A stretch of DNA of 64,000 nucleotides, from positions 1 through 64,000 of IMG/VR virus record IMGVR_UViG_3300028592_000006; one strand, written 5' to 3'. The position numbers and the translations under genes are program-made. This stretch comes from a virus. Lineage: Duplodnaviria > Heunggongvirae > Uroviricota > Caudoviricetes. Shown here one piece after another: positions 11,777 to 27,912 of this stretch (position 1 is the stretch's first letter; each line of letters begins with the position of its first letter). The notes beneath the pieces are model-generated. The model had not been told where the DNA came from. It ran no database searches and saw nothing but the letters and a program-made list of their open reading frames with translations.

Positions 11777-11991
11777 TGGACACTACCTCGGAACCCGCTT
11801 CCCACGTGGTGACGCGCCTCCGGGCCATGCTGCTTGAAGGCATGGTGAATGCGAAGGACCAATGGCTATGTGACGCCCTGGTCAATCGCACCCCGGAGGC
11901 CGAACTCACCGGTGCCAACCGCAAGTGGCTGTGCTCGTTGCTCGACCGCAATGGCGAACCATTTCTCAAGACCGAATCAATCCCGTCATGA
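11776..11991 (+). CDS. Hypothetical protein
   Basis: Internal Met MDTTSEP of ORF 11536-11991. Confidence 0.4.
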   Translation: MDTTSEPASHVVTRLRAMLLEGMVNAKDQWLCDALVNRTPEAELTGANRKWLCSLLDRNGEPFLKTESIPS

Positions 11992-12359
11992 CTCCCGAGC
12001 AAATCGAACGCAACCGCGAGTTCCTCAAGGACCTGAGGGCCAACCAAAAGAAAGTAAGGAAATGCATGAGAAGTTCTGGAGGCGGCCGTTGCTGCCTCGC
12101 AGTGGCTCTCGATTCCGCCATTGCCCAAGGCTATCAATGCCCGGAAACATGGGGTGATAGAGCCTTCCTTCCGCCTGATGACATGGCGGAAGATTTCTAT
12201 GGTTGGCCAGGTCGCTCGCCAATGCTGATTGGGCCTGATGGCGTGACCAAACACCATGCCGATGGATGGAATGATGGAAAGGATTGCCAAGAACTGAGCC
12301 ACGCCGAAATTGCCGACGCCTTCGAGCGCACCTTCCCCGAGCTGAAACAAGCTCCCTGA
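11984..12359 (+). CDS. Hypothetical protein, distant member of CGTxCCxxGH paralog family (GRCCLAVAL)
   Basis: Internal Met MTPEQIERN; CCLAVAL motif aligns with other paralogs. Confidence 0.4.
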
Positions 12360-12570
12360 TTTTCCCCGCGAAGGAAACCGAAGAGAGCCGGGGCTATGGA
12401 CCGCCCCTGCGGGTGATGGGACTCACCTGCAATTGACCACCCGTGCCGCCGAGGTTCCGCCCGAGAGGGCCGGCGTGCAAGTTTTCGTTTTGGAATGAAC
12501 CGCCTGCTGTGGGCACTCGCCCTTGTCATCCTCTTCCACCTGCTGGTGAAGATCTTTAGTTGAAACCAAT

Positions 12571-12921
12571 ATGATCCGTGACCCGAGAGAGCCCGTCTAT
12601 CGAAAGGTGGGTAAGCGCTACGTCGAATGCGGGCGCATCGACACTCCCTACCTCAAGGACCGCCAGGGATCATGGGAAGGCATCCGCAAGGATGGCCTGT
12701 GGCTCCACACCTCCGGCGATGGCTGGCGCGGGATGACCTTCCTTTCCTCGCTTGAGGACCTGCCGTGCAGTGCCGTGAGACTGGCTGCCATGCATGCCAA
12801 GCAGGACGACCTGACCAAGCTGATCATGGTGTGCAACGGCCAATCCATGAGTGTTGCCGAGCTTTCCAAAACCATCCTCCACTTCCTTGCCACGAGCCCT
12901 TCGGGCGGGAGCATTCCTTGA
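12571..12921 (+). CDS. Hypothetical protein
   Basis: 116 aa ORF. Confidence 0.45.
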   Translation: MIRDPREPVYRKVGKRYVECGRIDTPYLKDRQGSWEGIRKDGLWLHTSGDGWRGMTFLSSLEDLPCSAVRLAAMHAKQDDLTKLIMVCNGQSMSVAELSKTILHFLATSPSGGSIP

Positions 12922-12928
12922 ATCCCCT

Positions 12929-14113
12929 ATGAATACATCCACACCAACCAAGAGTCTCATTTTCCATACCGGAGGCGAAATCGACCCGGCTTCCTGGGAA
13001 ATCGTGGGCCTGTCAGCCAAGGAAACCGAGAACCCGCTGGGATTTTTCGGTAGCGGCCTGAAGCACAGCACCGCCATCCTCCTGCGCACCGGCCACAAGG
13101 TGCGGGTTGAGACCTCCAAGAATGGTGAGCGAGTCACCTACGAATTCGGAACCCGGGACATGGATTTCCGCGGCAAGGATTTCAAGCGCGTCACCTGCAA
13201 TGAGCAGGACTTGTCCTATACGACCCACATGGGCTCCCACTGGGAGCTTTGGCAGGCCTACCGGGAATTGGTCAGCAATACAATCGACGAGGGAGGGATC
13301 TGGTATGCCGGCGATCCGATGCCGGATGGAACCTCCTTCGTCATCGAAGGGCCTGTCATCGAGTGCCTGAAGGACCACGAGCGCTACTTTGTGGGTGATC
13401 GCGAGCCATTGGTTGTCTGTGACGGCCTCATGGAAGTCCACAAGGGCAACGGGACCATCTTCTACCGCGGGGTGAAGGTCGGGGAGATTGCCGGTTCACG
13501 CTGGTCCTACAACATGCTCCAGACGATTGAGCTGACCGAAGATCGAACCATCAAGCATCCGAGTGTCGTCCATGGTCAGATTGGCTTGGCGTGGTGCCAG
13601 TATGTGAAGGATGAAAAACTACTCCGCGAGCTGATGACGGTTCCTCAGAGCGCCTGGGAGCATGACGTGGACCTCGACTGGAGCTGGTCTCAGGAATTCC
13701 TGAAGGTTGCAGACAACCTGTGGACCAACGCACCCACCACCCTCACCAAGCAGATCCAACGGTTGATGAAGCGCCGCAACCCGTCAGCCACCTTCGCCTG
13801 CCGGGAGAAAACCGAGGACGAGGCGATGATGCTGGAACGGGCCTTGGAGGTAATGGCGACCATCGGGTATCCGGTGACGGCTCCGGTGGAACTGGTCGAC
13901 AACGAGGACGACAACAACATTGCCTTCATCCACGACTCCAAGATCCACCTGACCAACAGGGCATTCGACCGGGGCCTGTTCTTCCTGCTCACGGTGCTGA
14001 TGGAGGAACGCTCGCACGTTTCCGGGTATTCCGACGAGTCGCGGGCTTTCGAGTCCTACCTGATCGAGGAGCTGATCAAGCACGCGGCCAAGCGCCATCG
14101 CATTGTTCTTTAA
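12929..14113 (+). CDS. Hypothetical protein (394 aa) with possible nucleotide-binding motifs (GFFGSGLKHS; ELVSNTIDEGG)
   Basis: Internal Met MNTSTPTK of ORF 12851-14113; ExxxNxxD-like and Gly-rich motifs but not in canonical GHKL order. Confidence 0.55.
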   Translation: MNTSTPTKSLIFHTGGEIDPASWEIVGLSAKETENPLGFFGSGLKHSTAILLRTGHKVRVETSKNGERVTYEFGTRDMDFRGKDFKRVTCNEQDLSYTTHMGSHWELWQAYRELVSNTIDEGGIWYAGDPMPDGTSFVIEGPVIECLKDHERYFVGDREPLVVCDGLMEVHKGNGTIFYRGVKVGEIAGSRWSYNMLQTIELTEDRTIKHPSVVHGQIGLAWCQYVKDEKLLRELMTVPQSAWEHDVDLDWSWSQEFLKVADNLWTNAPTTLTKQIQRLMKRRNPSATFACREKTEDEAMMLERALEVMATIGYPVTAPVELVDNEDDNNIAFIHDSKIHLTNRAFDRGLFFLLTVLMEERSHVSGYSDESRAFESYLIEELIKHAAKRHRIVL

Positions 14114-14125
14114 CCAACCACAACC

Positions 14126-14596
14126 ATGGACAACGATAATCCATCCGCTGAATTCGCCCTCCGTGACGCGGAGGTTCCCTGGCCTGACTCCATCGAGGAG
14201 CTGGTCGCCTACATCAACAGTTTGACCGAACGACAGCACGACTACGGCACCGTCGTCTATGCCATGAGCATGGCTGCGGTGGCTGCCTTCCAGTATGTGG
14301 CGAAGAAGGAAGGGACCACTGGTTTCCAGGCCGGCTGTGCTGATCTGGACATCATCCGCCGCACCCGGCGGCTCAAGGGTCCGTTCATGATCGTGAAGCT
14401 GGAGGATACCCTGTATCCCCAATACGACGTGGAGGGGGATGTCAGGAAATTCTTGAATTCACCACGCTCCCTGCAATGGCTCAAGGAGCAAGCCCTTGAG
14501 CAACTTGAGAAAACCACCAAGGGCAATGTCCATCAACATGTCCTTGAGCACTGGAAGAGGCTTGCCGCATGGCGGCATGAAGAACCAACCACCTGA
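14126..14596 (+). CDS. Hypothetical protein
   Basis: 156 aa ORF. Confidence 0.5.
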   Translation: MDNDNPSAEFALRDAEVPWPDSIEELVAYINSLTERQHDYGTVVYAMSMAAVAAFQYVAKKEGTTGFQAGCADLDIIRRTRRLKGPFMIVKLEDTLYPQYDVEGDVRKFLNSPRSLQWLKEQALEQLEKTTKGNVHQHVLEHWKRLAAWRHEEPTT

Positions 14597-14600
14597 AACC

Positions 14601-15002
14601 ATGGGCGACCGGGGAAATTTATACATCACCAATAGGGACAGCACCGGCAAGCTGGAGTCCTGGATCGACCTCTACTGGCACTGGCACGGATCAAAGGTCC
14701 GGGACTATGCGGCCTACGCCCTTGAGGTCTGCCGCGGCCGGTGGGATGACGAGAGCTACATGGTGGCCTTGTTTCTGGGGCACCTGTATGGCTTCCATGT
14801 CCCTCCGAGCGGCATTGTCATCAACGGTTTCGACGACAACGAGCATGATGTCGTGGAGATGTGCATGACCGATAACCGAGTGAGGATCTGGAATGGCTAC
14901 GATCATGGCGACCTCAACACGCTGGCAGACGTGTCCAAAGCCAAGGAGTCCCTTCCGTTCCATGAATTCTGCCGCAAATACGAACCACCGAAGGAGGAAT
15001 GA
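14601..15002 (+). CDS. Hypothetical protein
   Basis: Internal Met MGDRGNLYI of ORF 14496-15002. Confidence 0.5.
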   Translation: MGDRGNLYITNRDSTGKLESWIDLYWHWHGSKVRDYAAYALEVCRGRWDDESYMVALFLGHLYGFHVPPSGIVINGFDDNEHDVVEMCMTDNRVRIWNGYDHGDLNTLADVSKAKESLPFHEFCRKYEPPKEE

Positions 15003-15140
15003 CCGTGCAGGAGTCCCTGCCTGATGGTGCAGGTGGCACTTGAAACCCCTTACAAAAGGCTGGGTTCAGGGTGCTAGGTAAGGACTTGCCGAATTTCCCC
15101 CTTCCAGTGTAACCGCTTACAATGAAGCACTTGTGAAACG

Positions 15141-15154
15141 TTAGTTGCAACTAA
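15141..15154. promoter_or_regulatory. Perfect 14-bp palindrome TTAGTTGCAACTAA (operator-like)
   Basis: Read directly in the 300-bp intergenic region 15003-15304. Confidence 0.45.
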
Positions 15155-15275
15155 TGCTTGTCCTTGGCCTGTTGCCTGCTAAATTAGCCACGTCCAATTT
15201 GGACGAAGCTCGCCCTGTCATGGGCACCGGCGCTTAAGCACGCAGCGCAGCCAAGAAATACCTCCGTGAGGCGAT

Positions 15276-15298
15276 GAGCCTCCGGAGGCTTTCTTTTT
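15276..15298 (+). terminator. Rho-independent terminator candidate
   Basis: AGCCTCCGGAGGCT palindromic stem followed by TTCTTTTT. Confidence 0.45.
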
Positions 15299-15304
15299 CC
15301 CATT

Positions 15305-15823
15305 ATGTTCTACCTTTGCTGCTACCACGATTGGCCGGAGCGGAAATCCGAGATCCGGGAAGACCCTCCGAAGTTCTGGCCCAACACCGAGGGTTACTCC
15401 TCAATGTCGGCCGGCTATGAGACTGAAGCCGAGCTTCGAGAGAAGAACGGCATTCCCGATGAACCCTGCAAGGAATGTGGGTCGATCTTCAGCACCCACT
15501 ACAGCGAGCCGGTGAAGACGCTGCTTCTTGAGAGGGGCATTTGCCATCACTGCAACCACTTCCTGCAATTGATCGGAAAACAGCATGCCCTGCGGATCAA
15601 TGGAGTCCACTGGATGGGCAAGGCAGGTGACAAGGGACAAGGCTGCGGCGGAAGAACCTTCGGAATACGAATGCTCGGCACCGGTGAGGAGTTCCAGACC
15701 TCCAACCTGTGGTGCCAGGGAGAGATTCCATCCCATTTCCGGGAACGCCTTCCTGACAATGCCGAGTTCATTCAAATACCAAAGCCCATGCTTCACGGGC
15801 AGGGATACCTTGGAGACCCATGA
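15305..15823 (+). CDS. Cys/His-rich hypothetical protein
   Basis: 172 aa; multiple CxxC/HH pairs (CKECG, CHHCNH). Confidence 0.5.
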   Translation: MFYLCCYHDWPERKSEIREDPPKFWPNTEGYSSMSAGYETEAELREKNGIPDEPCKECGSIFSTHYSEPVKTLLLERGICHHCNHFLQLIGKQHALRINGVHWMGKAGDKGQGCGGRTFGIRMLGTGEEFQTSNLWCQGEIPSHFRERLPDNAEFIQIPKPMLHGQGYLGDP

Positions 15824-16029
15824 CCACTGAAAGAATCAGCCACCACGAAATTTCCGTGAAGTTGCGGGACCTGCTTGCCAATAGCGGCATCAAAACCGGA
15901 TCGGTTAAAGCCAGAACCGTTGAACAAGCATTCCTCCACGGGATGATCTTTGCCGATGAACGCTATATGACGCCCTATATCGCCATCCTGCTGGTTAGCG
16001 GCAGGTCCATCCTCGACGACCACCCATGA
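15820..16029 (+). CDS. Hypothetical protein
   Basis: 69 aa; ATGA-coupled. Confidence 0.4.
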   Translation: MTTERISHHEISVKLRDLLANSGIKTGSVKARTVEQAFLHGMIFADERYMTPYIAILLVSGRSILDDHP

Positions 16030-16493
16030 CCACTCCACGACAATACACCGATGAGGAACGCCGGAGCAACCTCGCCCGTCTGGCCAAGGCCCTGCTCTCC
16101 CGGAAGTTCAAGGTGAGCTTCGAGATGGATTGCTTCGCGTTCAATCCCCATTCCAAGGTAGTACCTGCTCCTTTCGAAGTGGCTAACATCTGCGGAACTT
16201 CCTGCTGCGCACTCGGTCACGCTCCCTTCGTGATCAACGACGTGAATGATGGAGAGCGCTGGATGCAATATTCCAACCGGACCATGCCAATGCGAGCTGG
16301 TGGAGGCGCTGACTCTCGCGATTGGGATTTCCTGTTCGGTCAGTATTGGCCTGACGACAAGAAGCAGTTTGCCGCACGGGCTTTCCTCTACCTCACCGAA
16401 GGCACCCCTGACGACTTCGACGAGGATTGCTACGGGGAGGATGAATACACGGTGGTGGGACCGAAGCGCTTCGACCAATTTATCATCAAATGA
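16026..16493 (+). CDS. Hypothetical protein, CGTxCCxxGH paralog family member
   Basis: ANICGTSCCALGHAPF ... DWDFLFGQYW ... FAARAFLYL. Confidence 0.55.
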   Translation: MTTPRQYTDEERRSNLARLAKALLSRKFKVSFEMDCFAFNPHSKVVPAPFEVANICGTSCCALGHAPFVINDVNDGERWMQYSNRTMPMRAGGGADSRDWDFLFGQYWPDDKKQFAARAFLYLTEGTPDDFDEDCYGEDEYTVVGPKRFDQFIIK

Positions 16494-16723
16494 AAAAGCC
16501 ACGCACCAAGATCAACCCGGGTAACCGGAAGAACCTCGACACCATCAATGCCGCGGCCCGGGACGGAAACCTGTGCCTCATGCTCTGCCATTGGAAGGAC
16601 TCCGGGAAACCGGTGGATGTGCTGTGCGCGGTGAACCGGCAGGAGAATAGTGATTCGGCCTTTGTGCCGCTCGCCACCTTGTTCGATGGCAACCCCTACG
16701 AGTTGCTGTTGCCGCCGCAATGA
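16490..16723 (+). CDS. Hypothetical protein
   Basis: 77 aa; ATGA-coupled. Confidence 0.4.
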   Translation: MKKPRTKINPGNRKNLDTINAAARDGNLCLMLCHWKDSGKPVDVLCAVNRQENSDSAFVPLATLFDGNPYELLLPPQ

Positions 16724-16867
16724 CACCACATCAAGGAATTCGCCGTAAAGGCCCCTAGGAGCCACCAGGAGCGAAGCGACGCCATCCGCAGGCACACTAC
16801 AGGGAAGCCACCAGAAACGCAGCCACAGGCACCCCACAACGCAAAAGAAACACCACCCACAGGAAAC

Positions 16868-17089
16868 ATGAGCAACCCAGGACAAGGAAATGGAAATCTA
16901 TCCATGCACCAGAGCCAATACCACTGCGGCTTAACCAAACGGGAATACATCGCCACTGCCTGTTTGCAGGGCTTGCTGGCAGCCCAAATCCATGGCTTCA
17001 CGGATGTTCCATCCAAAGGTCCATTTGCGCGCCTGGCAAGAGATGCGGCCGATGCACTTCTTGCAGAACTCGAATCAAACAATCCATGA
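16868..17089 (+). CDS. Hypothetical protein
   Basis: 73 aa. Confidence 0.4.
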   Translation: MSNPGQGNGNLSMHQSQYHCGLTKREYIATACLQGLLAAQIHGFTDVPSKGPFARLARDAADALLAELESNNP

Positions 17090-17892
17090 TCCTCAAGCAC
17101 ATCAGCACCGCCCCCAAGGACGGCACCATCATCCTCGCCCTCACCACTAACGCCCTCGAGCAAGTCAGGTTCAGCAGGGTCAGGTTCAACAATGGCCGCT
17201 GGCGTTATGGAAAGGATAGCCATGTTGAATTACAGGAGTCGTTCATCCTCTGGACCGAAAACCACATCGAGGAAGAAAAGGCACCGGAGCCACCCAAGCC
17301 GGTCCTCGTGCCACTGGGGCCGAACAAGACCCGCGATGGCCGAACCGTCCACGTCCGCTGCATCGACGCCGCGAAGCCCGGCTATCCGGTTATCGCTGAA
17401 GTCCCTGACCCGCACTCCAAGGAACTCATCCTCACCTACTATACCGCTGAAGGGGTTTCCCGTAGCAGTAAAGAAAGGGACCGCACGGACCTCGTCGGCC
17501 ACCTGCCCCCGGCAGAACCGGAACCCGTGAAGCCGCGGGAGTGGTGGATCAACATCTGCGAGCACCGGCCGGAGTTCTTCGCATCAAAGGAAGACGCAGA
17601 TGAGGCGGCGTGCAATAGCCGGAAGGAATGCAGGCATGTCCGCGAAGTCCTCCCCGGCGAACAGGACGAACTTGAAGCCCTGCGTCTGTGGAAGAAGGCG
17701 CAACTGCTGGTTGAGGACCAGTGGGACCCGCACGCGGTAGGCAAGGAACTCGGGCTTACGTTGGGTTCCAAGATCCGTCCAGCCATCCTGCCGAAGATCC
17801 GGGAATACAAGGACCTTCTGGATAGGGCACTCCGGGGACTAGACCCTCAATGTCATTTGGCAGGACAAATCCGCAAAGCGCTCAACCCATGA
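17086..17892 (+). CDS. Hypothetical protein (N-terminus DUF551-like: HISTAPKDGTIILALT)
   Basis: 268 aa ORF; motif similarity is weak. Confidence 0.5.
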   Translation: MILKHISTAPKDGTIILALTTNALEQVRFSRVRFNNGRWRYGKDSHVELQESFILWTENHIEEEKAPEPPKPVLVPLGPNKTRDGRTVHVRCIDAAKPGYPVIAEVPDPHSKELILTYYTAEGVSRSSKERDRTDLVGHLPPAEPEPVKPREWWINICEHRPEFFASKEDADEAACNSRKECRHVREVLPGEQDELEALRLWKKAQLLVEDQWDPHAVGKELGLTLGSKIRPAILPKIREYKDLLDRALRGLDPQCHLAGQIRKALNP

Positions 17893-18146
17893 AAGCAGGC
17901 GACATCATCGACACCCCGCACGGCACCGGCACCGTGCATGGGTTTGAAATCTACCCTCCGCTCGACAAGGGTTGGAGGGATCATCAGCCATGGCCTGACG
18001 TGGAATACACCACCGTCTTTCCAGATGAAATTCCGGAAGGAACCTTCATCCGGGTTGGCGTCACCGGTGCCCACCCCACCCTGACGGTGGCCTACTATAC
18101 CTTCGATGAACTCCAACTGGAAAAGCCATGGGATACCAACGCGTGA
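17889..18146 (+). CDS. Hypothetical protein
   Basis: Internal Met MKAGDIID of ORF 17850-18146; ATGA-coupled. Confidence 0.45.
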   Translation: MKAGDIIDTPHGTGTVHGFEIYPPLDKGWRDHQPWPDVEYTTVFPDEIPEGTFIRVGVTGAHPTLTVAYYTFDELQLEKPWDTNA

Positions 18147-18481
18147 TACCACGGGACCTCTTCAACGAAGCCAGCCTGTTGAAATGCGTGGGAAGGCTCT
18201 CATTGCTCATTCACAACCGTTCCGCGCCACCAAACCTCCGGCTGGAGCACTTCGGCACCAGTGCAGGATTCCAGATCTACCAAGACCCTGATGATGGTTC
18301 CATTGCCATCAGCAACATCAGCCTGTTCCGGAACAACAAAGGTGGCTTCGATTTGTGGAGGCCCTTGAACTCTCGTGACCCATGGCCGCTTTACGTCGAT
18401 TACAAAGACAATGAAGCCCGTGTATTTGACCACGAAGGCAATTTGTCACCGGAATTCATCGAATGGTCCTTAAAGCCATGA
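18128..18481 (+). CDS. Hypothetical protein
   Basis: 117 aa. Confidence 0.45.
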   Translation: MGYQRVIPRDLFNEASLLKCVGRLSLLIHNRSAPPNLRLEHFGTSAGFQIYQDPDDGSIAISNISLFRNNKGGFDLWRPLNSRDPWPLYVDYKDNEARVFDHEGNLSPEFIEWSLKP

Positions 18482-18684
18482 AAGCCGATGACACCATGGG
18501 AGGGCAGCACCTCAAGAAGCTGCTGGCGCGGTTCAGGCCGAACCGGAAGTCCCGCATTGAATGGCTGGCCACCCCCAATGGCTCCTTTGCCATCAAATGT
18601 GCCCCCATCGAGCTGATCCTCGCCGGCAAGGGCAACATCGTCCAATACCACCTCGAACAACGCCTCAAGGGCAACCCCGCATGA
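18478..18684 (+). CDS. Hypothetical protein
   Basis: Internal Met MKADDTMGG; ATGA-coupled. Confidence 0.4.
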   Translation: MKADDTMGGQHLKKLLARFRPNRKSRIEWLATPNGSFAIKCAPIELILAGKGNIVQYHLEQRLKGNPA

Positions 18685-19109
18685 AAACCTACATTTCCAT
18701 CTCCAAAGGCTCCTACGACTTCCTTCACCCGAAGGACGTGCAGGTGCAGGTTTCCATCCGCGGCTTGGACAATGAACTCACCGGTGTCCATTTCCTCAGT
18801 GAAACGTGGCCGGAAGACGAGGACCCTGGCATTGACTCCAGCACCCTGCTGCGGGACGTGGTTGCCACCATGAAGGCCCGTTTGGAGTCCTACTGGATCA
18901 ACACACGCAAAGACCGAGAGCTGCCAGTCTATGCGTGGCTGGAGGCCAACATGGACGAGTTGGAGCGCCATTGGGCAATCCAGCGACAAAAGAATCTTAA
19001 GGCCCAAATCGACCGCTTGCAGGCCGAGTGGAACCAATTGGATGTGGACTACGAGCTTTCGTCGGTTCCGCTGAAGGAGGAGTTCGAGCCTTTGATCCAA
19101 ACCAAATGA
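18681..19109 (+). CDS. Hypothetical protein
   Basis: Internal Met MKTYISIS; ATGA-coupled. Confidence 0.5.
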   Translation: MKTYISISKGSYDFLHPKDVQVQVSIRGLDNELTGVHFLSETWPEDEDPGIDSSTLLRDVVATMKARLESYWINTRKDRELPVYAWLEANMDELERHWAIQRQKNLKAQIDRLQAEWNQLDVDYELSSVPLKEEFEPLIQTK

Positions 19110-19522
19110 AAACCGAAATCATCACCACCTTTCCTCCCGGCCTCTACTACGTCGGGGATCTCTGCTACCTGATCCAAGACCGGGATCAATGGTCGGCCGT
19201 CTGCAATGCCATTGCAAACACCTGGTGCGGAACCGTCAACCTGCCGGAACATGGCATCCAAGCATGGTTCTCATCGACCAAGTGGGGTGACGGAACCTAC
19301 CGTGACCAATTTGGACGGGAATACGAGGTGGACGCCGGCCTCATCGGGGTTTGCGCAGTCAAGGACACTACCCCGGTGCGTGGAGGCCACATCCTGGCCT
19401 TTGACCGGCCGTTCGAGTGCTTCGGGTATGATTCAGACGACTGGGATGGGGAAATCATGATCGGTGAACTGCGAATCGACACCGACCCGGAGTGCGACGT
19501 GGACGAGGAGGAAGAAGAATGA
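19106..19522 (+). CDS. Hypothetical protein with acidic C-terminus
   Basis: Internal Met MKTEIITT; ATGA-coupled. Confidence 0.5.
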   Translation: MKTEIITTFPPGLYYVGDLCYLIQDRDQWSAVCNAIANTWCGTVNLPEHGIQAWFSSTKWGDGTYRDQFGREYEVDAGLIGVCAVKDTTPVRGGHILAFDRPFECFGYDSDDWDGEIMIGELRIDTDPECDVDEEEEE

Positions 19523-19689
19523 AACCCACCGACGAGAACATCCGGGAGATGGCCCGCAAGCGCTACGGCCTGACCGGCAACGTGGACGTGGATGATGACG
19601 CGGTGGTCTCCCGTGGCGATGACCCGGGAGCCTACGTGCAGGCGTGGGTGTGGGTGCCTTTTGAAGAGGGTGAGGACGAGGAAGAATAG
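19519..19689 (+). CDS. Small acidic hypothetical protein
   Basis: Internal Met MKPTDEN. Confidence 0.4.
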   Translation: MKPTDENIREMARKRYGLTGNVDVDDDAVVSRGDDPGAYVQAWVWVPFEEGEDEEE

Positions 19690-19810
19690 CCTTTAGCTTC
19701 GGCTAAAGAAAAGAAGCTTGCACCGGTGCCGGCATCGGGTAGTTTCACCCACGTTCCTTGCATGCGGCGAGAACGGACCAATTTCCCTCTTGAGGAAAGC
19801 TCAAGACGCG

Positions 19811-19857
19811 AACCCCGATTCCTGGCCGCATACTGGGATCGGGGTTTTGCTTTTCTT
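19811..19857 (+). terminator. Rho-independent terminator
   Basis: AACCCCGAT-17 nt loop-ATCGGGGTT followed by TTGCTTTTCTT. Confidence 0.6.
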
Positions 19858-20269
19858 CCGGGAAGCACCACTTCACATAACAAGGAAGGAAGGAACGTTC
19901 AAAGCGACCGCACCCGACCCACCGGAAGATCACAAGGGTCTCCCCCTGACGACAAATGAAGGGGAGATGGCGTGGCGGTGACAGCACCACGTCTCAGTGT
20001 GAATGCTCCATGGGGTTTGAAGCCGTTCCTACCACCACAGCCCTTCGGCTACTCATGGGGTCCGGCGTCCTGCTTGCAGGGCTGCGAGCAGGCTTGTCCC
20101 GCAAAGCAATCCCCGGTCTATACGCTTTTCTCCGTGGCTCCGTTACGGGTGAGGTTCGAGCGGTAGGGTTTCGGCTGCAATGGCCGAACTCTGCCGTATA
20201 GCAACCGTCCACCACCCGGGTGAGGTTGGGCTGGTTTACTACGACCCGTCCGATTGCTCCTACTGGCAG

Positions 20270-20644
20270 ATGAAACCAAGGAAGAAACCAACCGAATCCC
20301 AGCGGGAGACCTTCAAGTTGAAGTTCCTATCCTTGGTTGGTGGTTTCCTTGTGAAGCATCCACATTGGACTTTGAAGAGATTCCACTCGGGACACTACCG
20401 GTTGATAGATGGCAAACGTCTCACGGACTTCTGGCCTGTCACCGGCACCTGGTATGACCTGGACTCGAGGGCGAAAGGGAAAGGCTTTGATTCTCTGGAG
20501 AGATTCCTGACAGGAGAACAACCCGAGGGGATACCCAGATCCAAATACCCGAAACCGGAAGACCCGAAGCACTACGATCATCCCGACCTGATGGATGACA
20601 TTCCATCCTTTGAAGACCTCAACCCTGAAACCCCACCTTGGTAA
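20270..20644 (+). CDS. Hypothetical protein
   Basis: Internal Met MKPRKKPTE (atgaaacc start context shared with other genes) of ORF 20180-20644. Confidence 0.45.
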   Translation: MKPRKKPTESQRETFKLKFLSLVGGFLVKHPHWTLKRFHSGHYRLIDGKRLTDFWPVTGTWYDLDSRAKGKGFDSLERFLTGEQPEGIPRSKYPKPEDPKHYDHPDLMDDIPSFEDLNPETPPW

Positions 20645-20997
20645 TGAGCCGACCACCATACACCGCTCGCCAGTACTTTCTCGAGATGACCGACCCGACC
20701 AATTGGCCGGAGGATGCTGGAAAAGAATACGCCCATGCCATGGAATTGGTCCATGAAGGGGTCATGGATTGGTGGAGCGAGCTTGAGCTGACTGAATACA
20801 TCGACGTTGTTGAAACCACAAAGGGAGCCATTTACCCCTACATGGTGGAAACCAAACCAAACGAAAGCTGGAGCGCCCACACCATCTGGAAGGAGCTGGA
20901 ACACGCCCAGATGGTTGGCAGGGCCATCCGGAGGGAACACCCGAATCTCCCCGTCCGCATTCTTCATTACACCGGCCCATCCGGTCCACCCTTCTGA
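20638..20997 (+). CDS. Hypothetical protein
   Basis: 119 aa. Confidence 0.45.
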   Translation: MVMSRPPYTARQYFLEMTDPTNWPEDAGKEYAHAMELVHEGVMDWWSELELTEYIDVVETTKGAIYPYMVETKPNESWSAHTIWKELEHAQMVGRAIRREHPNLPVRILHYTGPSGPPF

Positions 20998-21410
20998 TGA
21001 ACCCTGACGACACCGCCATGAGCTGGGACGAGTGGAAGGAAGCTGGCTTCCACGTCATCAAGGGCCAGAAGTCCCACCTGCGGGATGCCCTTGGTGTCCC
21101 TCAATTCACCGAACAACAGGTCGAGCCTGATCGTGGCAATTATCGGGGAATGTGGGAGGACGAAGGCGGAAACTATCATTACGTGATGCCCGGACAGACC
21201 GTTGCCGGACAAGTTTACTATCGACCGGAGGAGGCGCCTCCGCTGGCATTCGATCCACGAGGATTTCCAACCAAGGAGCGGATGGACTACCACATGAGCA
21301 TGCTCAACCCAACCCACCAGGCCTTCCGTGCCCTTGAATCCCATCTGGATTCGGTGTTCGAGAAGCACCACGGTGGCATGGAATTCGACGAAGACTACGG
21401 GGACTGGTAG
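20997..21410 (+). CDS. Hypothetical protein
   Basis: 137 aa. Confidence 0.45.
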   Translation: MNPDDTAMSWDEWKEAGFHVIKGQKSHLRDALGVPQFTEQQVEPDRGNYRGMWEDEGGNYHYVMPGQTVAGQVYYRPEEAPPLAFDPRGFPTKERMDYHMSMLNPTHQAFRALESHLDSVFEKHHGGMEFDEDYGDW

Positions 21411-21427
21411 CCCTTCGGGCTGGAAGG

Positions 21428-21631
21428 ATGAAGGACATGGACGACAAGGAACCTATAGCCATGAGTGAGGAAGCCTACCCTTGGTTCGCGACCAACGAGA
21501 AGCAGTTCGTCCAGATCACCGAACCCCGTTTCCAAATGGGAGGAATGGTTAATTGCCGCAACAAGGAAGGCCAGGAGTGGCTCATCCCGTTCGAGGAACT
21601 GGAGACAGCCGAGAAGCACAAGGAGCCATGA
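21428..21631 (+). CDS. Hypothetical protein
   Basis: 67 aa. Confidence 0.35.
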   Translation: MKDMDDKEPIAMSEEAYPWFATNEKQFVQITEPRFQMGGMVNCRNKEGQEWLIPFEELETAEKHKEP

Positions 21632-21819
21632 AAACCAACATCCTCATCAAGGTCCTCAGAGAATCCATTAAAAAGGATGGAGATGCCGTGCTCACAAAAT
21701 TCTCCCTCTTGGAAATCCTGGATGAAGCAAGAAAGCTCGAGAAAGAAGAAGCCATCCAAGAGGAGGAAAATCATCGGCAAGCATGGGAAGAAGCAAACCC
21801 TCACTGGGGGCAATTCTAA
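21628..21819 (+). CDS. Hypothetical protein
   Basis: Internal Met MKTNILIK; ATGA-coupled. Confidence 0.4.
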   Translation: MKTNILIKVLRESIKKDGDAVLTKFSLLEILDEARKLEKEEAIQEEENHRQAWEEANPHWGQF

Positions 21820-21825
21820 GCAACC

Positions 21826-21978
21826 ATGATCTTCACCCTGCTAATCCTTTCCTGCCTGCTCACAGGAGGCATCATAGGAGCCCTCCTGCTGGGCCGCTGG
21901 GAACACTACCGCTACTGGCTGTTTGCTGCCGGAGCCTTGTCCGAAACGGCCATGTTCATTCTCATTCACAAGCAATGA
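21826..21978 (+). CDS. Small membrane protein (50 aa, two hydrophobic segments)
   Basis: MIFTLLILSCLLTGGIIGALLLGRWEHYRYWLFAAGALSETAMFILIHKQ, ATGA overlap with next gene. Confidence 0.3.
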   Translation: MIFTLLILSCLLTGGIIGALLLGRWEHYRYWLFAAGALSETAMFILIHKQ

Positions 21979-22205
21979 CACTCATCACCAAATACGACAT
22001 CCGCCATCGGGTCTGGATCATGATTGAGAATAAGCCCGAAGAAGTGGAAATCCACGACATTACCGTGGCGGTGACTCCTGACGCTCAGGGTGTTCCGGTG
22101 CCAACCATCTGCTACCGGCACTACGGTGCCAAGCATGGCCTTTCCAACATTCACAGGCAGGACCTGTATTTTCCCACCAAGGAAGAACTCATCGCATCAC
22201 TATGA
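21975..22205 (+). CDS. Hypothetical protein
   Basis: Internal Met MTLITKYD of ORF 21783-22205. Confidence 0.4.
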   Translation: MTLITKYDIRHRVWIMIENKPEEVEIHDITVAVTPDAQGVPVPTICYRHYGAKHGLSNIHRQDLYFPTKEELIASL

Positions 22206-22993
22206 CACCGCAATCGAACCTCCGCACCATCACCCCCGCGTGGGCTGCCAAGGTGCTCAAATACAAGAACGTCGGCAACCGGCCGATCAACGAGAAGCAC
22301 GTCAAGGAGCTGGCCGACGAAATGGCCGGCGGACGCTGGGAACTCAACGGGGACACCATCTGCCTGAACGGCGAACGTCTGATAGACGGACAGCACCGCT
22401 TGAAGGCGGTCATCCTGTCGGGCGTGTCCATCCGCACCTTCGTGGTGGACGGGCTCAAATCCGAGACCTTCCACACCAAGGACATCGGCAAGCGCCGCAG
22501 CGGGTCCGACACCTTCGCTGCGGCGGGCGAGCAGAACACCACCCGGCTGGCAGCCGCGCTGGCAATGGTGGAGACCTACATGGCGGGCAAGGCGGGCTAC
22601 AAGATGAGCTACACCAACGGCCAGTTGCAGGACCTGCTGGACAAGTATCCCGACATCCGGGAAACCTGCGCCAAGAGTTTCAAGTGCCAGGGATTCGTCA
22701 ACCGCTCCATCCTTGACTCTTGCCACTACCTGTTCTCAAAGAAGGACCCGGAGCTGGCGGATGTATTCATCACCGCCACCCTGAAGGGTGTGGGATTGGA
22801 AGCAGGAAGCCCGTGGCTGGCCTTGCGCGAGCGGCTGGTGTCGAACTCGATCAACAAGGCGAAGCTCGACAAGTGGCACCTCATGGCGCTGTGCATCAAG
22901 GCGTGGAACTCCGCCCGCAAGGGCAAGCCGTTGCACCAGCTCAAGTGGACGCCTGACGGCAAGAACGCCGAGAACTTTCCCATCATCCTCTAA
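22202..22993 (+). CDS. ParB/Sulfiredoxin-like nuclease domain protein
   Basis: LIDGQHRLKAVI (DGxHRxxA ParB N-terminal motif). Confidence 0.65.
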   Translation: MTPQSNLRTITPAWAAKVLKYKNVGNRPINEKHVKELADEMAGGRWELNGDTICLNGERLIDGQHRLKAVILSGVSIRTFVVDGLKSETFHTKDIGKRRSGSDTFAAAGEQNTTRLAAALAMVETYMAGKAGYKMSYTNGQLQDLLDKYPDIRETCAKSFKCQGFVNRSILDSCHYLFSKKDPELADVFITATLKGVGLEAGSPWLALRERLVSNSINKAKLDKWHLMALCIKAWNSARKGKPLHQLKWTPDGKNAENFPIIL

Positions 22994-22995
22994 CC

Positions 22996-23214
22996 ATGAA
23001 CGACACCGAATTGATTGACTGGCTGGAAACCCAGGAAGGCTCCGCTTTGATTTCCGATGACTTCGGACACTGGGCCGTAAGTGGAACGGGGATGCAAAAC
23101 GTGCCCGAGAATCCGCCGGATGACATCCAAACCACCTTCTTCATCGAAAAGCACGAGTGGAAGAAGACTATCCGTGAAGCAATTCTAGCGGCTTACAAGG
23201 AAGTAGAGTCATGA
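22996..23214 (+). CDS. Hypothetical protein
   Basis: 72 aa. Confidence 0.4.
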   Translation: MNDTELIDWLETQEGSALISDDFGHWAVSGTGMQNVPENPPDDIQTTFFIEKHEWKKTIREAILAAYKEVES

Positions 23215-23633
23215 AAACACTCGAACAAAAGGAGCTTCGCTCACTGGTGGCACGGACTGCCTTGGAAATCCTTGCCGGCACCGGTATGCCTTTCAGGATG
23301 GAATACTGGGTGTCTTACAAGGGAGTTGAAAAACGGATGGGCTGGGCAGACCCGAACATCTGCGGCACCGCCTGCTGTCTGGTCGGTCACATGTATGCCA
23401 TTGAGCATGAGAAACCGGTGCTCTCTGCCGGAGACAATGAAGAGATTTCTGGTTTTGCTTCTGCAAACTACATCCCGCCATTCCTCTTCGACTCGGACTG
23501 GTCGGATGACCGCGATCAATGCGGGGTTCGCTGCCTGATGTGGCTCAATGGAGAGGACACCGAGGACTACGAGGCCACCGACATCTACCCGGTGCCGGAG
23601 GACCTCCGTGAACAACTCGAGCAATTTGCATAA
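23211..23633 (+). CDS. Hypothetical protein, CGTxCCxxGH paralog family member
   Basis: NICGTACCLVGHMYA ... PPFLFDSDW ... QCGVRCLMWL. Confidence 0.55.
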   Translation: MKTLEQKELRSLVARTALEILAGTGMPFRMEYWVSYKGVEKRMGWADPNICGTACCLVGHMYAIEHEKPVLSAGDNEEISGFASANYIPPFLFDSDWSDDRDQCGVRCLMWLNGEDTEDYEATDIYPVPEDLREQLEQFA

Positions 23634-24091
23634 TGAAGCGATCAAAAGAACAACGCCTTGCGGTGGCAGCCATTCGCATTCTCGACGAGGTAGGACCAAG
23701 CCTGGACATGGATACCTTCGCCAATCATTGCGGCACCTCCTGCTGTCTTGCCGGCCATGCCGTTTTGCCGATGGGGAAAACCGCTCCACGAAAGGGCATG
23801 AGCCCAATCCAGGAGCGTCTCATTGCGGACCTTGCCGGTGATTTCACCGACAACTTCACCAATCGTTCCGCATCATGGCTTTTCAGCCCGGTATGGAGCA
23901 ACGACCGCAAGCAATGCGCCACCCGGGTCCTGATGTTCCTTGAGAACGACAAGGGGGCACCTGCTGAATTCGAAACCCGTCCTGGCGACCAAGGCCCCAA
24001 GGGGGTGAAGGATTACCCGGTGCCGCGCAACCTGCGTGCCCGGCTGATGAAGTTCGTCCCGGCCGATCTCAAGGAATCCCTCTCGAAATGA
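23633..24091 (+). CDS. Hypothetical protein, CGTxCCxxGH paralog family member
   Basis: NHCGTSCCLAGHAVL ... SWLFSPVW ... QCATRVLMFL; tandem with 23211-23633. Confidence 0.55.
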   Translation: MKRSKEQRLAVAAIRILDEVGPSLDMDTFANHCGTSCCLAGHAVLPMGKTAPRKGMSPIQERLIADLAGDFTDNFTNRSASWLFSPVWSNDRKQCATRVLMFLENDKGAPAEFETRPGDQGPKGVKDYPVPRNLRARLMKFVPADLKESLSK

Positions 24092-24411
24092 AGTCCGTCT
24101 TGCAGCGCCAAAAGATCAACCCGTATCTGGCACCGACCACCACCCACCTGTCGGAGTGCCTTCCGTATTACCTGTCGAACCATAATTCGGGGAGCTACAA
24201 CACGAAGATGGTGCACATCATCCGCTCCGGGCTGGTCCACTGGACGAGTGACAAGCGGGACCAGGTGCGGCACCTGAGCTACAACTTCTGGTGCGGCGGT
24301 GCGGGATCGACCGGCAAGGGTGAGCTGATGGATGACCCCGGTGCATTGACGGTGTGCCGGCGCTGCCTTGAAGCGCACGGCAAGAGCCCGAACAAGACCT
24401 TAAAGCAATGA
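24088..24411 (+). CDS. Hypothetical protein
   Basis: 107 aa. Confidence 0.45.
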   Translation: MKSVLQRQKINPYLAPTTTHLSECLPYYLSNHNSGSYNTKMVHIIRSGLVHWTSDKRDQVRHLSYNFWCGGAGSTGKGELMDDPGALTVCRRCLEAHGKSPNKTLKQ

Positions 24412-24644
24412 AAGCGCTGTATTTGAAAGCCGATGGCTGGTGTGCCGTTTACGTCAACGGAATTGCAGTCTTCCAGGACCATTCGATCCAGCCGATGGAA
24501 ATGCTACGGCTGGCCACCAAGTTCTGCTTCGGGTTCGATGATGTCCATGTGGCATGGGCTAACGACGAGGATTGGGATGAATGCGAGGAATCGGGGCAAT
24601 TCCCGGAATTGACTGAAGAGCTGAAAGGAAGCTATGAGCCCTAA
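24408..24644 (+). CDS. Hypothetical protein
   Basis: 78 aa. Confidence 0.4.
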   Translation: MKALYLKADGWCAVYVNGIAVFQDHSIQPMEMLRLATKFCFGFDDVHVAWANDEDWDECEESGQFPELTEELKGSYEP

Positions 24645-24891
24645 GGAAAAGGTCGAGAAATCCCTGCTTGCGTTTAAAGCCCACCAGGAGCTTCGTGAGC
24701 GCGTTGCGGAAGTCTGGTGGAGGTTGTTCCACGAGAAGCCGACAAACGCCGCCACGACGACGCTGGCCACCTTTGCGGAGCTGCGGGGATTCGAGGCTAT
24801 CGAGCAATGGCTCACCCGTGCCGCCATGGAGGAAATCCCGCCTCAAAATGTAATACGATTCGTCCGCCATCAGGCTAAACACTTCCACTGA
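24634..24891 (+). CDS. Hypothetical protein
   Basis: 85 aa. Confidence 0.4.
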   Translation: MSPKEKVEKSLLAFKAHQELRERVAEVWWRLFHEKPTNAATTTLATFAELRGFEAIEQWLTRAAMEEIPPQNVIRFVRHQAKHFH

Positions 24892-25146
24892 ATGAAATTC
24901 AAACACCTCCTAACCATTACCATCGGCGTCATTCTCTGGTTTGTTGCCACCGTTGCCACTCCTGCCGCCACCGGGCTAGAGGCATCGGCCGCAGCCGACC
25001 AGGTCAAGACCGGTTTCAATTATCTCCAAGCCCGCGCCGAAATGGATCTGTGGGCGAGAGCCTGCCAACTGACCCGCATCGCGGGATACGCCCTGATCTT
25101 CTCGGGCGTCCTTTTTTCCATCCTCCCGAAAAAACAAAAAGCATGA
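24892..25146 (+). CDS. Small membrane protein (two TM helices)
   Basis: LLTITIGVILWFVATVA ... IAGYALIFSGVLFSIL; directly precedes SPFH lipoprotein. Confidence 0.45.
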   Translation: MKFKHLLTITIGVILWFVATVATPAATGLEASAAADQVKTGFNYLQARAEMDLWARACQLTRIAGYALIFSGVLFSILPKKQKA

Positions 25147-26123
25147 ACAAACACACCATCATCCTGCTGGCGCTGGCCAGCCTTGGCCTGCCCTCCTGCA
25201 TGAAGCCCGTGCGGGTCGATCCCATCAAGGAGATCAACCCCAACGAAACCGCCTTCGTGGTCCCACTGGAAGCCGGCACCGAAAACCAGGAAAAACTGGA
25301 GTCGGTTGAATTCCTCAAGCAGTCGCAGGTTGCCGCCAAGCGCATCGTCATCCCTCAACGGGAGCGCAAGATCGGCCGGTTCGATCACAACGTGGAATGG
25401 ATTCCGACGGTAAGGGTCCTCACCGTCAACCGGACACCGGTGACGCGGTCATGGATCACCTCCCTTTCGGAAAACCCCAAAGCGTCCAATGACACCCGTG
25501 ACTTCGGGGTCGAATCCAAGGACTCCATCGGATTCTCGGTCGGGGTGAACGTGTCGGCCTTCATCGAGGAGACCGACGCCGCCAAATACCTCTACTACTA
25601 CCGGGGTGATGACCTGTCCGAAGTGATGGACCGCAACGTTCGAGAACGGGTCCACACGGTCCTGCACGGTGAATTCACCAGCCTGACGCTACAGGAATCC
25701 AAAACCGCGAAAGCAGCCATTGTGGAGGCGCTCCGCGAGGACGTGGTGAAGCACTTCAAGGAGTTCGGCATCACCATCACCAGCATTGGCCTGGCGGAAG
25801 GCATGACCTTCGAGCAACCCGAGATCCAGCAGTCGATCAACAGCGCCTACGTTGCGGAAATGGCGGTGGAGCAGGCCAAGCAGAAGACCGCCGAGCAGAA
25901 CGAGGTGAACAAGCGCCTTCTGGCGCAGGCACAGGGTGAAGCCGCCGCCGCCAAGGAATTTGCCGCGGCAGCCGAAGAACGGATCAAGCTGGTCAACCTC
26001 GACATCCAAAAGATCAAGGCCGAGGCGGAACGCACCAAGGCCGAGAAATGGGATGGGAAAATGCCGCAGTTCATGACCAGCGGCGAGGGAGGAAACTTCC
26101 TTTTCCAAATCGACAAGCAGTGA
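25143..26123 (+). CDS. SPFH/Band-7 (prohibitin/HflK-like) domain lipoprotein
   Basis: Signal peptide with lipobox LGLPSC; C-terminal coiled-coil QAKQKTAEQNEVNKRLLAQAQGEAAAAKEFAAAAEERIK typical of SPFH proteins. Confidence 0.6.
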   Translation: MNKHTIILLALASLGLPSCMKPVRVDPIKEINPNETAFVVPLEAGTENQEKLESVEFLKQSQVAAKRIVIPQRERKIGRFDHNVEWIPTVRVLTVNRTPVTRSWITSLSENPKASNDTRDFGVESKDSIGFSVGVNVSAFIEETDAAKYLYYYRGDDLSEVMDRNVRERVHTVLHGEFTSLTLQESKTAKAAIVEALREDVVKHFKEFGITITSIGLAEGMTFEQPEIQQSINSAYVAEMAVEQAKQKTAEQNEVNKRLLAQAQGEAAAAKEFAAAAEERIKLVNLDIQKIKAEAERTKAEKWDGKMPQFMTSGEGGNFLFQIDKQ

Positions 26124-26229
26124 ATCAACCGGGGCAGCGCTGGCACCTGCTGGCGCTGCTTTCCATTAACTCCGGCCAAAGCGCTTCGCGCTGGCGTCTT
26201 CGAGTGAATCACCTTCTCCTCTCCTCCAC

Positions 26230-27072
26230 ATGATCGTCAAAAAAGGACTCACCTGCTTTCCCGCCCCGTTCGCCCGCGCCATCGCCAATGATGCTTACGA
26301 CCCCGGGGTCTCGGATTACACCGTGACCCAGCTTCTGAGTCCGCCACAGAGGACCTGGCTGGCCACCAAGGGTGGAAAAGTTGAAAGCGGATACGCAGCC
26401 ACCATGTCGGTGTTCGGAACCGGAGTCCACAATGTGCTGGAAAACCACGTGGACAAGGAGGCTGGCGAACTGGCAGAGGTTCGCTTCTACAAGCAGATCA
26501 ATGGCCTGACCATCGGAGGGAAGATCGACCTGTATGTCCCCGGTGAGGTCCACGACTGGAAGGTGACAGCCAAGGTGCAGGACCAAGCCAAGCCAGAGCA
26601 CCACGACCAAGCCCAGATGAACGGTCTGCTGGCAAGCCACAACGGGCTACCGGTGAATGTCGTCGCGGTGAACTACTTCGACCGGGCATGGAGCTACCTC
26701 CAGTCCGTCGTCAACCCGACCTATCCCAAGACCGCCTTCACTTCCTTCGTCTTCGACTTCGACCCGGCCTATGCGGAAAAGCGTTTCAACGAAACCATCG
26801 CCGACCACGTGGCAGCCAAGGCCGGCAGGCCGCGTCCCTGCACGGATGACGAGCGCTGGAAGAAGCCCGACACCTATGCGCTCATGAAGCCCGGAGCCAA
26901 GCGGGCCAGCAAGGTTTGCGACTCACTGGCTGAAGCCGAGTCACTCAAAAAGCCGGACCAGATCATCCAAGCCCGACCGGGCGAGTCCACCTATTGCAAA
27001 TTCTTTTGCGGATTTTCGCATATCTGTAGGCAATACCAGAGCGATCTAGCCCAACAATCCGAAGAACCATGA
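26230..27072 (+). CDS. PD-(D/E)XK exonuclease, Cas4/RecB-like with C-terminal Cys cluster
   Basis: GTGVHNVLE, GKIDLY, HDWKV motifs; YCKFFCGFSHIC plus N-terminal Cys consistent with Fe-S Cas4-like nucleases. Confidence 0.6.
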   Translation: MIVKKGLTCFPAPFARAIANDAYDPGVSDYTVTQLLSPPQRTWLATKGGKVESGYAATMSVFGTGVHNVLENHVDKEAGELAEVRFYKQINGLTIGGKIDLYVPGEVHDWKVTAKVQDQAKPEHHDQAQMNGLLASHNGLPVNVVAVNYFDRAWSYLQSVVNPTYPKTAFTSFVFDFDPAYAEKRFNETIADHVAAKAGRPRPCTDDERWKKPDTYALMKPGAKRASKVCDSLAEAESLKKPDQIIQARPGESTYCKFFCGFSHICRQYQSDLAQQSEEP

Positions 27073-27335
27073 AGATTTTTACACGCAACCGCTACGGCCA
27101 TGAGACGTGGTTTGAGTCCCGCCGCGGCAACAAATGGAAGGTGAGCTGCACGAAGGCCCATTACTGCCGTCTTGGAGGTGAGCCTGACAATATCATCTAC
27201 TGGGACCCGGAAGGAGGGCCTTTCATTGAAAAAGGGGTCAGCCTCAACAGGTTTCACAAGGATCTTCCCGATTCCCTCATCACGTCCATCAAGCCGCTCA
27301 AGACCGGCGGAATCATCGTATCCACCGAACCATGA
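27069..27335 (+). CDS. Hypothetical protein
   Basis: 88 aa. Confidence 0.4.
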   Translation: MKIFTRNRYGHETWFESRRGNKWKVSCTKAHYCRLGGEPDNIIYWDPEGGPFIEKGVSLNRFHKDLPDSLITSIKPLKTGGIIVSTEP

Positions 27336-27721
27336 ACAAACTGCCGAAATTCAGCCTCAAGGGGATGACCTGCACGGAACTGGCTACCTTCCTTGAAAAC
27401 CCTCCTGCCGGGGAAGAGCGTGCCGCAGCAACGAAGATTCGAGAACGCTTTGCCCATTGGTCCAAGGGACTCGAGCTGCTCAAGAAGTGCGGGGACCTTC
27501 CAGCGCGATACCACATGGCCTACATCAAGACAGCCAAGCACCTCGACCACATCCCGGAGGTGAAGATGATGGTGGGTGGAGGCAAACCGCAGCAGGTGTC
27601 CATGCCACGCTTCAGCAAGACGCTGAAGAAGATGGCGGAAGCCAATGGTCACGGAACCCTGCATCGGTGGAGCCGTGGAGCCTTCAAGCTCCATCAGCCG
27701 GTCAAACAGGAGGAGTCATGA
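27332..27721 (+). CDS. Hypothetical protein
   Basis: 129 aa. Confidence 0.45.
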   Translation: MNKLPKFSLKGMTCTELATFLENPPAGEERAAATKIRERFAHWSKGLELLKKCGDLPARYHMAYIKTAKHLDHIPEVKMMVGGGKPQQVSMPRFSKTLKKMAEANGHGTLHRWSRGAFKLHQPVKQEES

Positions 27722-27912
27722 TTGATATTTCCAACCCAGCCATCGGGATTTGTGCCGCATTGACCATCCTTCTGGTTCTCATCGCCGGATTCGCCATGGG
27801 TCATGATGAAGCAGACACGGGGATTTCAATCCCGGGTGGATTGATCATGGTGGGAATGGTCGGTTGGATTTTAGTGAACCTCATCGGGTTCATTGTAAAA
27901 GCATGGCCATGA
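27718..27912 (+). CDS. Small two-TM membrane protein (holin-like)
   Basis: MIDISNPAIGICAALTILLVLIAGFAMG...GLIMVGMVGWILVNLIGFIVKAWP. Confidence 0.4.
   Translation: MIDISNPAIGICAALTILLVLIAGFAMGHDEADTGISIPGGLIMVGMVGWILVNLIGFIVKAWP

Follow-up and report, generated by a model that had tools for sequence, protein, structure and literature searches.

Three Diverged Paralogs of an Essentially Phage-restricted CGTxxC Protein Family, Possible Host-interaction Modules, in an IMG/VR Phage Genome

Several described protein groups share some features with a set of small proteins that we analyzed in a 64,000-nucleotide stretch of Caudoviricetes DNA, positions 1 to 64,000 of IMG/VR record IMGVR_UViG_3300028592_000006 (hereafter, the window). 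The set comprises the products of three genes, here called B, C, and D, which carry a CGTxxC element; a preliminary description of the sequence had grouped a further gene, A, with them. The active-site logic of peroxiredoxins is T-x-x-C plus a distant Arg, and that of AhpD/CMD proteins is CxxC...H in an all-alpha fold. Actinophage WhiB-like iron-sulfur (Fe-S) proteins are small, helical, Cys-bearing, and phage-encoded, and they act on host processes. The phage T4 proteins Alt, ModA, and ModB form a trio of ADP-ribosyltransferases.

The likeness of the window proteins to each of these groups is partial. AhpD/CMD proteins are small and all-alpha, with a Cys pair and then a His one helical turn on (CxxCxxxH); comparison of the B/C/D family with AhpD/CMD (PF02627) revealed neither sequence nor fold similarity and no conserved CxxCxxxH. 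The near-invariant T35-x-x-C38 and R98 of the family (residues are numbered as in D throughout, unless another protein is named) recall the peroxiredoxins, which have the thioredoxin alpha/beta fold, whereas the model of D is all-alpha, so that the analogy would be one of chemistry at most. WhiB-like proteins have four conserved Cys residues and a G[VI]WGG turn, whereas the CGTxxC family has two invariant Cys residues, no such turn, and no Pfam match. The T4 trio is similar in genome arrangement only, with three diverged paralogs, two adjacent and one elsewhere, in nonstructural regions; no ADP-ribosyltransferase fold or motif was found in B, C, or D.

The coordinates of B, C, and D given in the preliminary description were correct, and the three genes, with their strand and signature residues, are as follows.

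16026–16493, plus strand: paralog B, 155 residues (P0001), the closest of the three copies to the family consensus; motif CGTSCCALGH at 16191–16220 and conserved Arg118 at 16377–16379
23211–23633, plus strand: paralog C, 140 residues (P0002), acidic (isoelectric point (pI) 4.36, net charge −14); motif CGTACCLVGH at 23361–23390 and Arg107 at 23529–23531
23633–24091, plus strand: paralog D, 152 residues (P0003), basic (pI 9.18, net charge +5); motif CGTSCCLAGH at 23729–23758 and Arg98 at 23924–23926

The start codon of each gene overlaps the stop codon of the gene upstream, in the form ATGA for B and C and in the form TAATG at the C/D junction, where D overlaps the stop of C by 1 nucleotide. BLASTP aligned the three products with one another at E = 3e-14 (C and D), 1e-12 (B and D), and 3e-8 (B and C), and each of these pairwise alignments was colinear, as the preliminary description had anticipated for these three. 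A hidden Markov model (HMM) built from 128 family sequences matched B at E = 2.6e-46, D at E = 8.7e-29, and C at E = 1.5e-27. The pattern CGT[AS]CC..GH, reported earlier for all three genes, occurred three times in the six frames of the window, whereas 100 first-order Markov simulations averaged 0.0 occurrences. Cys33, Thr35, Cys38, Gly41, and Arg98 are all present in the three proteins, and the later blocks, FLF...W and then Q..xR...L, follow colinearly. The second and third motif patterns proposed earlier stood as homologous, colinear columns, but their exact letters are found in only some of the copies; C has QCGVR, and D has LFSPVW. D also carries the variants L-D-M (for F-x-M) and LF..W (for FLF...W). 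Identity among the three proteins is 27–32%. Neither a 3-sequence nor the 128-sequence HMM detected a further paralog among the 949 six-frame open reading frames (ORFs) of the window. Judged by these alignments and profile matches, B, C, and D are homologous and constitute a three-member, not a four-member, family in the window: the existence of a paralogous family of 140–155-residue proteins, two of them in tandem, was borne out, and the proposed fourth member was not.

That fourth member is the following gene.

11988–12359, plus strand: gene A, 123 residues (P0152), excluded from the B/C/D family

The start at 11984 given for gene A in the preliminary description is out of frame, and the frame from 11984 to 12359 contains 6 stops; the gene in fact begins with the ATG at 11988, which overlaps the stop codon of its upstream neighbor. 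When A was compared with D, BLASTP returned nothing at E ≤ 100, and A was not among the matches of the 3-sequence family HMM (E ≤ 10, filters off) or the 128-sequence family HMM (E ≤ 50, filters off). The reciprocal search with an HMM of the A family lent no support to its membership either. Comparison with the B/C/D family by hhalign gave probabilities of 0.65% for A alone, 3.7% for the 13-member alignment of A, and 6% once two distant A-type sequences joined that alignment. Membership of gene A in the B/C/D family was thus rejected by BLASTP, both HMMs, the reciprocal HMM, and hhalign. Its GRCCLAVAL segment had been described as a degenerate version of the motif, but the 2 occurrences of the pattern G.CC[LA] are about what chance predicts (1.68 expected), and the CC dipeptide is all that gene A shares with the B/C/D signature. 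Gene A has 12 orthologs at 41–57% identity, forming a family of 13 proteins with the signature RNREFLKDLRAN...GGRCCLCVA...FYGW...NDG...HAEIADAFE.TFPELK. These comparisons place gene A in a small family of its own, without detectable homology to B, C, and D.

Distant proteins of a CCLGV...LND...F.EIA type were observed 3–7 kb from CGTxxC-family genes in other phage contigs, and the A-type sites are as follows.

Window, 11988–12359, plus strand: gene A
Locus L007, 17287–17694: A-type protein
Locus L067, 7106–7567: A-type protein

Like the CGTxxC proteins, the members of the A family and these distant proteins are small and phage-encoded and have an N-terminal helix ahead of a segment that contains CC, and they lie within 3–7 kb of CGTxxC genes in the window, in L007, and in L067–69; unlike B, C, and D, they have neither CGT nor the invariant Gly, and the FLF...W block and the Arg are missing as well. 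A recurrent co-occurrence of two unrelated accessory families with Cys motifs is possible.

The extent of the CGTxxC family became apparent from an exhaustive HMM search over 1.84 billion cluster representatives (50%-identity clusters), whereas a word-index protein search had recovered only 7, and later 15, proteins. With a threshold of E ≤ 1e-3, the family comprises 1651 clusters, and with E ≤ 1e-10, it comprises 231; most have 130–180 residues. In an alignment of 128 family sequences, Cys38 and Gly41 are conserved in 128/128, Arg98 in 127/128, Cys33 in 126/128, Met26 in 125/128, Thr35 in 116/128, and Gly34 in 115/128. The aromatic and neighboring positions follow with Phe84 in 120/128, Trp88 and Leu103 each in 119/128, Trp56 in 118/128, Phe24 and Leu83 each in 107/128, Pro44 in 97/128, Phe82 in 96/128, and Tyr59 in 93/128. 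The invariant or near-invariant set therefore consists of Cys33, Thr35, Cys38, Gly41, and Arg98 together with an aromatic core. Cys37 is found in 85/128 sequences, and His42, which is not conserved, in 83/128 (65%), its place being taken otherwise by Tyr, Phe, or Trp. An intramolecular Cys/His metal site, raised as a possibility in the preliminary description, does not agree with these counts, in which C33 and C38 are the only conserved candidates. The elements follow one another in the order N-terminal helix, F-x-M, a length-variable loop, and C-G-T-x-x-C-x-x-G-(H or aromatic)-x-P, and then a W..Y block and the FLF...W block; the long helix that comes next bears the invariant Arg. Across the family, the loop from F-x-M to CGT has ∼4 to 30 residues, and the pI ranges from 4.1 to 10.3. 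Some members are fused two-domain proteins that keep the motif in both halves (P0048, P0081, and P0140); several of the long members consist of nothing more than the domain twice over, and among longer members no Pfam fusion partner was detected beyond a weak DUF7695 match.

In keeping with the earlier remark that the family was not recognizable, searches of Pfam and NCBIfam with the A, B, C, and D proteins found 0 families at E ≤ 10. Among the 128 relatives, there were only 2 stray single matches to Pfam, none to NCBIfam, and none (0/128) to the PADLOC-DB defense-system models, and a sequence search of the PDB with both profiles gave nothing below E = 0.17. PHROGs v4 contains one related entry, phrog_889, to which 22 of the 128 relatives match (best E = 7.7e-07). 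It is a phage-only family of similar length (profile of 162 positions). D matches it weakly and partially (E = 1.1e-3, 19.6 bits) over residues 29–53 only, 25 residues that span the CGTSCC..GH region, and hmmscan gave no match for B or C at E ≤ 1. Since phrog_889 has no assigned function, it gives the family a name but no explanation, and a literature search on phrog_889, OLIVR5, and phage paralog arrays found nothing on function.

We modeled D with AlphaFold2. The model based on seven sequences was mediocre, with a predicted local distance difference test score (pLDDT) of 68.5; with 128 sequences, the pLDDT was 81.3 and the predicted template modeling score (pTM) was 0.79. The latter model is all-alpha, with seven helices (residues 5–18, 39–44, 58–73, 77–84, 92–104, 134–139, and 144–151), and the CGTxxC element lies where a long loop meets a short helix. 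It had no fold match among PDB or BFVD structures. From the model of D, the family is predicted to be an all-alpha single domain of ∼150 residues.

We compared the three paralogs with their closest relatives in other phages. The closest relatives of B (P0009, P0008, P0015, and P0005) are 43–45% identical to it, those of C (P0006 and P0029) ∼38%, and those of D 51% (P0004) and 40% (P0063). Each paralog is thus closer to orthologs in other phages than to the other paralogs of the window, and the duplications are therefore old. The neighborhoods of B and D are conserved as well. The ortholog of B follows the ortholog of a 394-residue protein (window 12929–14113) in two other loci (L003 and L005), and the ortholog of D in L009 adjoins orthologs of the window genes 17889–18146 and 18128–18481. 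The C-D tandem is not conserved; the ortholog of D in L009 and that of C in L011 stand alone. Taken together, these comparisons identify B, C, and D as old, separately maintained, and stably inherited subfamilies rather than recent in situ duplicates. Their divergence had been taken as a sign of diversification inside this phage, an interpretation contradicted by the closer orthologs elsewhere (38–51% identity, and 27–32% among the paralogs). As a separate observation, C and D are opposite in charge and overlap at stop and start; a C/D heterodimer is conceivable, and the pairing is not kept among orthologs.

The 394-residue protein upstream of B (12929–14113, plus strand) has homologs at 29–34% identity in 73 cultured phages, whose hosts or groups include YuA-like Pseudomonas, Bordetella, Stenotrophomonas, and Synechococcus phages; one homolog is annotated “HATPase,” and the protein itself had no Pfam or PDB match. 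YuA-like phages appear to be without the CGTxxC family, since no Pseudomonas or Bordetella phage was among the tblastn matches listed for three family queries.

Members of the CGTxxC family come almost entirely from metagenomic phage-like contigs. The cultured carriers are few, with the gene always annotated “hypothetical protein,” and are listed below.

Agrobacterium/Rhizobium phages OLIVR5, OLIVR6, IC12, LG08, and IG49
Ochrobactrum phage ORM_20
Alishewanella phage Slickus01
Synechococcus phage BUCT-ZZ01

No family match was found in plasmids; in cellular genomes, none was found with the first search pattern, and 7 loci in 5 genomes were found with the second. The family is essentially phage-restricted. 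Copy number was counted within ±10 kb at 48 IMG/VR loci, of which 18 held two or more copies: there were 30 loci with 1 copy, 10 with 2, 4 with 3, and 1 each with 6, 7, 8, and 10. Three loci (L054, L055, and L061) belong to one 96.7-kb contig, IMGVR_UViG_3300001269_000001, which carries ∼20 copies (16–17 full length and 3 truncated) with a median identity of 55%; the copies make up an estimated 9% of this genome. Two copies were found in OLIVR5 (gp147 and gp149) and in L002, and a tandem pair was found in L007. In L002, genes for an anti-Pycsar Apyc1-like protein, a NADAR protein, and an RNA ligase lie within the same array as the family copies. The copies of an array agree in their core blocks and differ in their loops. 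The Nei-Gojobori ratio of nonsynonymous to synonymous substitution rates (dN/dS) was 0.23–0.41 in the arrays of other phages, at dS values (0.9–1.5) near saturation, and ∼0.41 for the copies of IMGVR_UViG_3300001269_000001. These values indicate relaxed purifying selection overall; positive selection was not demonstrated. For B, C, and D, dN/dS was not computable, their identity of 27–32% being in the saturated range.

We considered how the family might function. The domain would be a cytoplasmic, nonstructural accessory module expressed from an array of densely packed genes that are translationally coupled and lie upstream of those for replication. Its conserved helical core would present a small pocket lined by the two Cys residues, the Thr, and the Arg, and the hypervariable loops and surface charge around this pocket would set partner specificity. 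Since loops and charge would set specificity in this proposal, different paralogs would engage different host or phage targets, in host takeover or counter-defense, and copy-number expansion would supply several specificities. The domain may act as a dimer or pseudo-dimer, and the three copies of the window would be subfunctionalized old lineages. Support for such an accessory module is indirect and comes from the phage-only distribution, the arrays, the variable surfaces, and the Apyc1-like and NADAR neighbors in L002. The idea of host takeover or anti-defense, which the preliminary description had raised, would be compatible with tandem arrays of up to ∼20 copies, with variable loops and charge, and with the phage-only distribution. 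We assign a probability of roughly 0.4 to this explanation as a whole, established and proposed parts together. Its established part, namely that B, C, and D are ancient paralogs of a large phage family with conserved elements, an all-alpha predicted fold, and recurrent multi-copy occurrence, is close to certain. The proposed mechanism, an accessory host-interaction module around a thiol-lined site, is a tentative prediction. That the family represents an undescribed phage-restricted fold with a thiol or cofactor pocket, amplified as counter-defense or host-takeover effectors with paralog-specific targets, is a doubtful proposition.

Several results weigh against the accessory-module explanation. 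No named homolog or fold match pointing to a function was found, and the confidence of the D model is lowest (65–76) over the motif region itself. The array dN/dS values, obtained with dS near saturation, give no sign of positive selection overall, and the solitary orthologs of C and D weaken a C/D heterodimer. A 394-residue HATPase-like homolog lies 0.1–2 kb from a CGTxxC-family gene in five phages (the window, L003, L005, L026, and L062), and the position of B beside this conserved gene could place it in a core phage process rather than in an arms-race role. That B, C, and D are expressed “early” is an assumption drawn solely from their position. The invariant Cys, Cys, Thr, and Arg residues point to chemistry, be it redox, metal, or catalysis, rather more than to passive binding, and thereby lead to two other explanations. 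In one, the protein would be a thiol-based redox protein or enzyme in which Cys38, at a helix N terminus, preceded by Thr35 and paired with Arg98, is the reactive thiolate and Cys33 is the resolving or partner Cys; during infection, it would catalyze or sense a reaction of the thiol-disulfide, peroxide, or electrophile type. We regard it as unlikely: the near-invariance of C33, T35, C38, and R98, with His42 variable, argues for it, as does the position of the motif at a loop-to-helix junction in the D model, but the family resembles thioredoxin-fold, peroxiredoxin, or AhpD/CMD proteins in neither sequence nor fold, and an enzyme would not normally be amplified to 7–20 diverged copies per genome. 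In the other, which we consider a still slimmer prospect, two Cys residues from each protomer, or from each half of a fused protein, would form a four-Cys metal or Fe-S site in a dimer, a small protein that would regulate transcription or replication in the phage or the host. Exactly two invariant Cys residues per domain, the motif kept in both halves of fused proteins, the frequency of tandem pairs, the opposite net charges and translational coupling of C and D, and the proximity of B to the HATPase-like gene in five phages are consistent with it; no DNA-binding fold or motif was detected, however, the C-D pairing is not conserved among orthologs, and the supply of a C-x4-C motif in trans has no known precedent. 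The invariant Cys, Cys, and Arg thus favor the redox and metal explanations, and the 7–20 copies per genome count against an enzyme.

Two further explanations concern the family itself rather than its activity. The preliminary description held that four copies, including gene A, had been driven apart by diversifying selection within this phage. There are indeed three genuine copies, two of them adjacent, and the arrays of other phages show that duplication is common in the family, but gene A failed every homology test, B, C, and D are closer to orthologs elsewhere and have conserved neighbors, and array dN/dS in other phages is 0.2–0.4; we therefore consider this explanation very improbable. 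A chance coincidence of motifs, or a set of noncoding ORFs, would be hard to reconcile with pairwise E values down to 3e-14, with family HMM matches of 2.6e-46 to 1.5e-27, with a motif found three times where 0.0 occurrences are expected, and with hundreds of homologs that share the conserved columns, and its probability is negligible.

By itself, the window, with three diverged copies of a hypothetical protein, is ordinary for phage genomics. The interest lies at the level of the family, which has at least 1651 clusters, is modeled in neither Pfam nor NCBIfam, lacks structural relatives in PDB and BFVD, and combines an invariant Cys/Cys/Arg signature with an unusual tendency toward tandem arrays in phage genomes. 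It is a clean candidate for a new domain-family entry and a candidate for metal and redox, host-partner, and defense-phenotype screening, for which cultured carriers exist (Agrobacterium phage OLIVR5 gp147 and gp149). If the effector reading were true, bacteriophages would have in this family an equivalent of the multigene families known from large eukaryotic viruses, with 3 copies here and ∼20 in one 97-kb genome.

B, C, and D lie in a long block of small, tightly packed plus-strand genes from ∼10.6 kb to 44 kb. A weak large-terminase match and a DnaB-type helicase with its neighbors give the element the appearance of a phage:

941–2719, minus strand: large terminase, weak match
37836–39140: DnaB-type helicase, with DUF932, DUF7873, and Band_7 genes nearby

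The window sequence is also present in metagenome assemblies, in contigs of up to 79.5 kb. One of the loci, L001, is 99.99% identical to window positions 22861–34091 and hence provides no data on strain variation. A promoter and terminator scan of 9.5–26.5 kb found sites no more numerous than in shuffled sequence.

Further observations concern the surroundings of the three genes. Directly downstream of B, with a 4-nucleotide overlap, lies a gene for a DUF6117 protein (16490–16723, plus strand; precomputed Pfam). A gap of ∼490 nucleotides without a called gene (19690–20179) interrupts the gene-dense plus-strand array, and Rfam at gathering thresholds found nothing in it. Two genes upstream of C, a 263-residue protein (22202–22993, plus strand) contains a DGQHRL motif that by eye recalls ParB/Srx-type nuclease domains; it had no Pfam match at E ≤ 0.01 and no PDB sequence match. 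At 29924–29991 (plus strand), Rfam identified a tRNA with 54 bits against a gathering score of 29. The sequence folds as a cloverleaf, its anticodon loop CUUAUAA implies UAU (Ile), and its acceptor stem looks imperfect; ARAGORN reported no tRNA anywhere in the window, nor in a local run at this site. Within a minus-strand, perhaps structural, block, one uninterrupted ORF of 4652 residues (44391–58349, minus strand) had no PHROG match at E ≤ 1e-3, and its product may be a giant virion or ejection protein.

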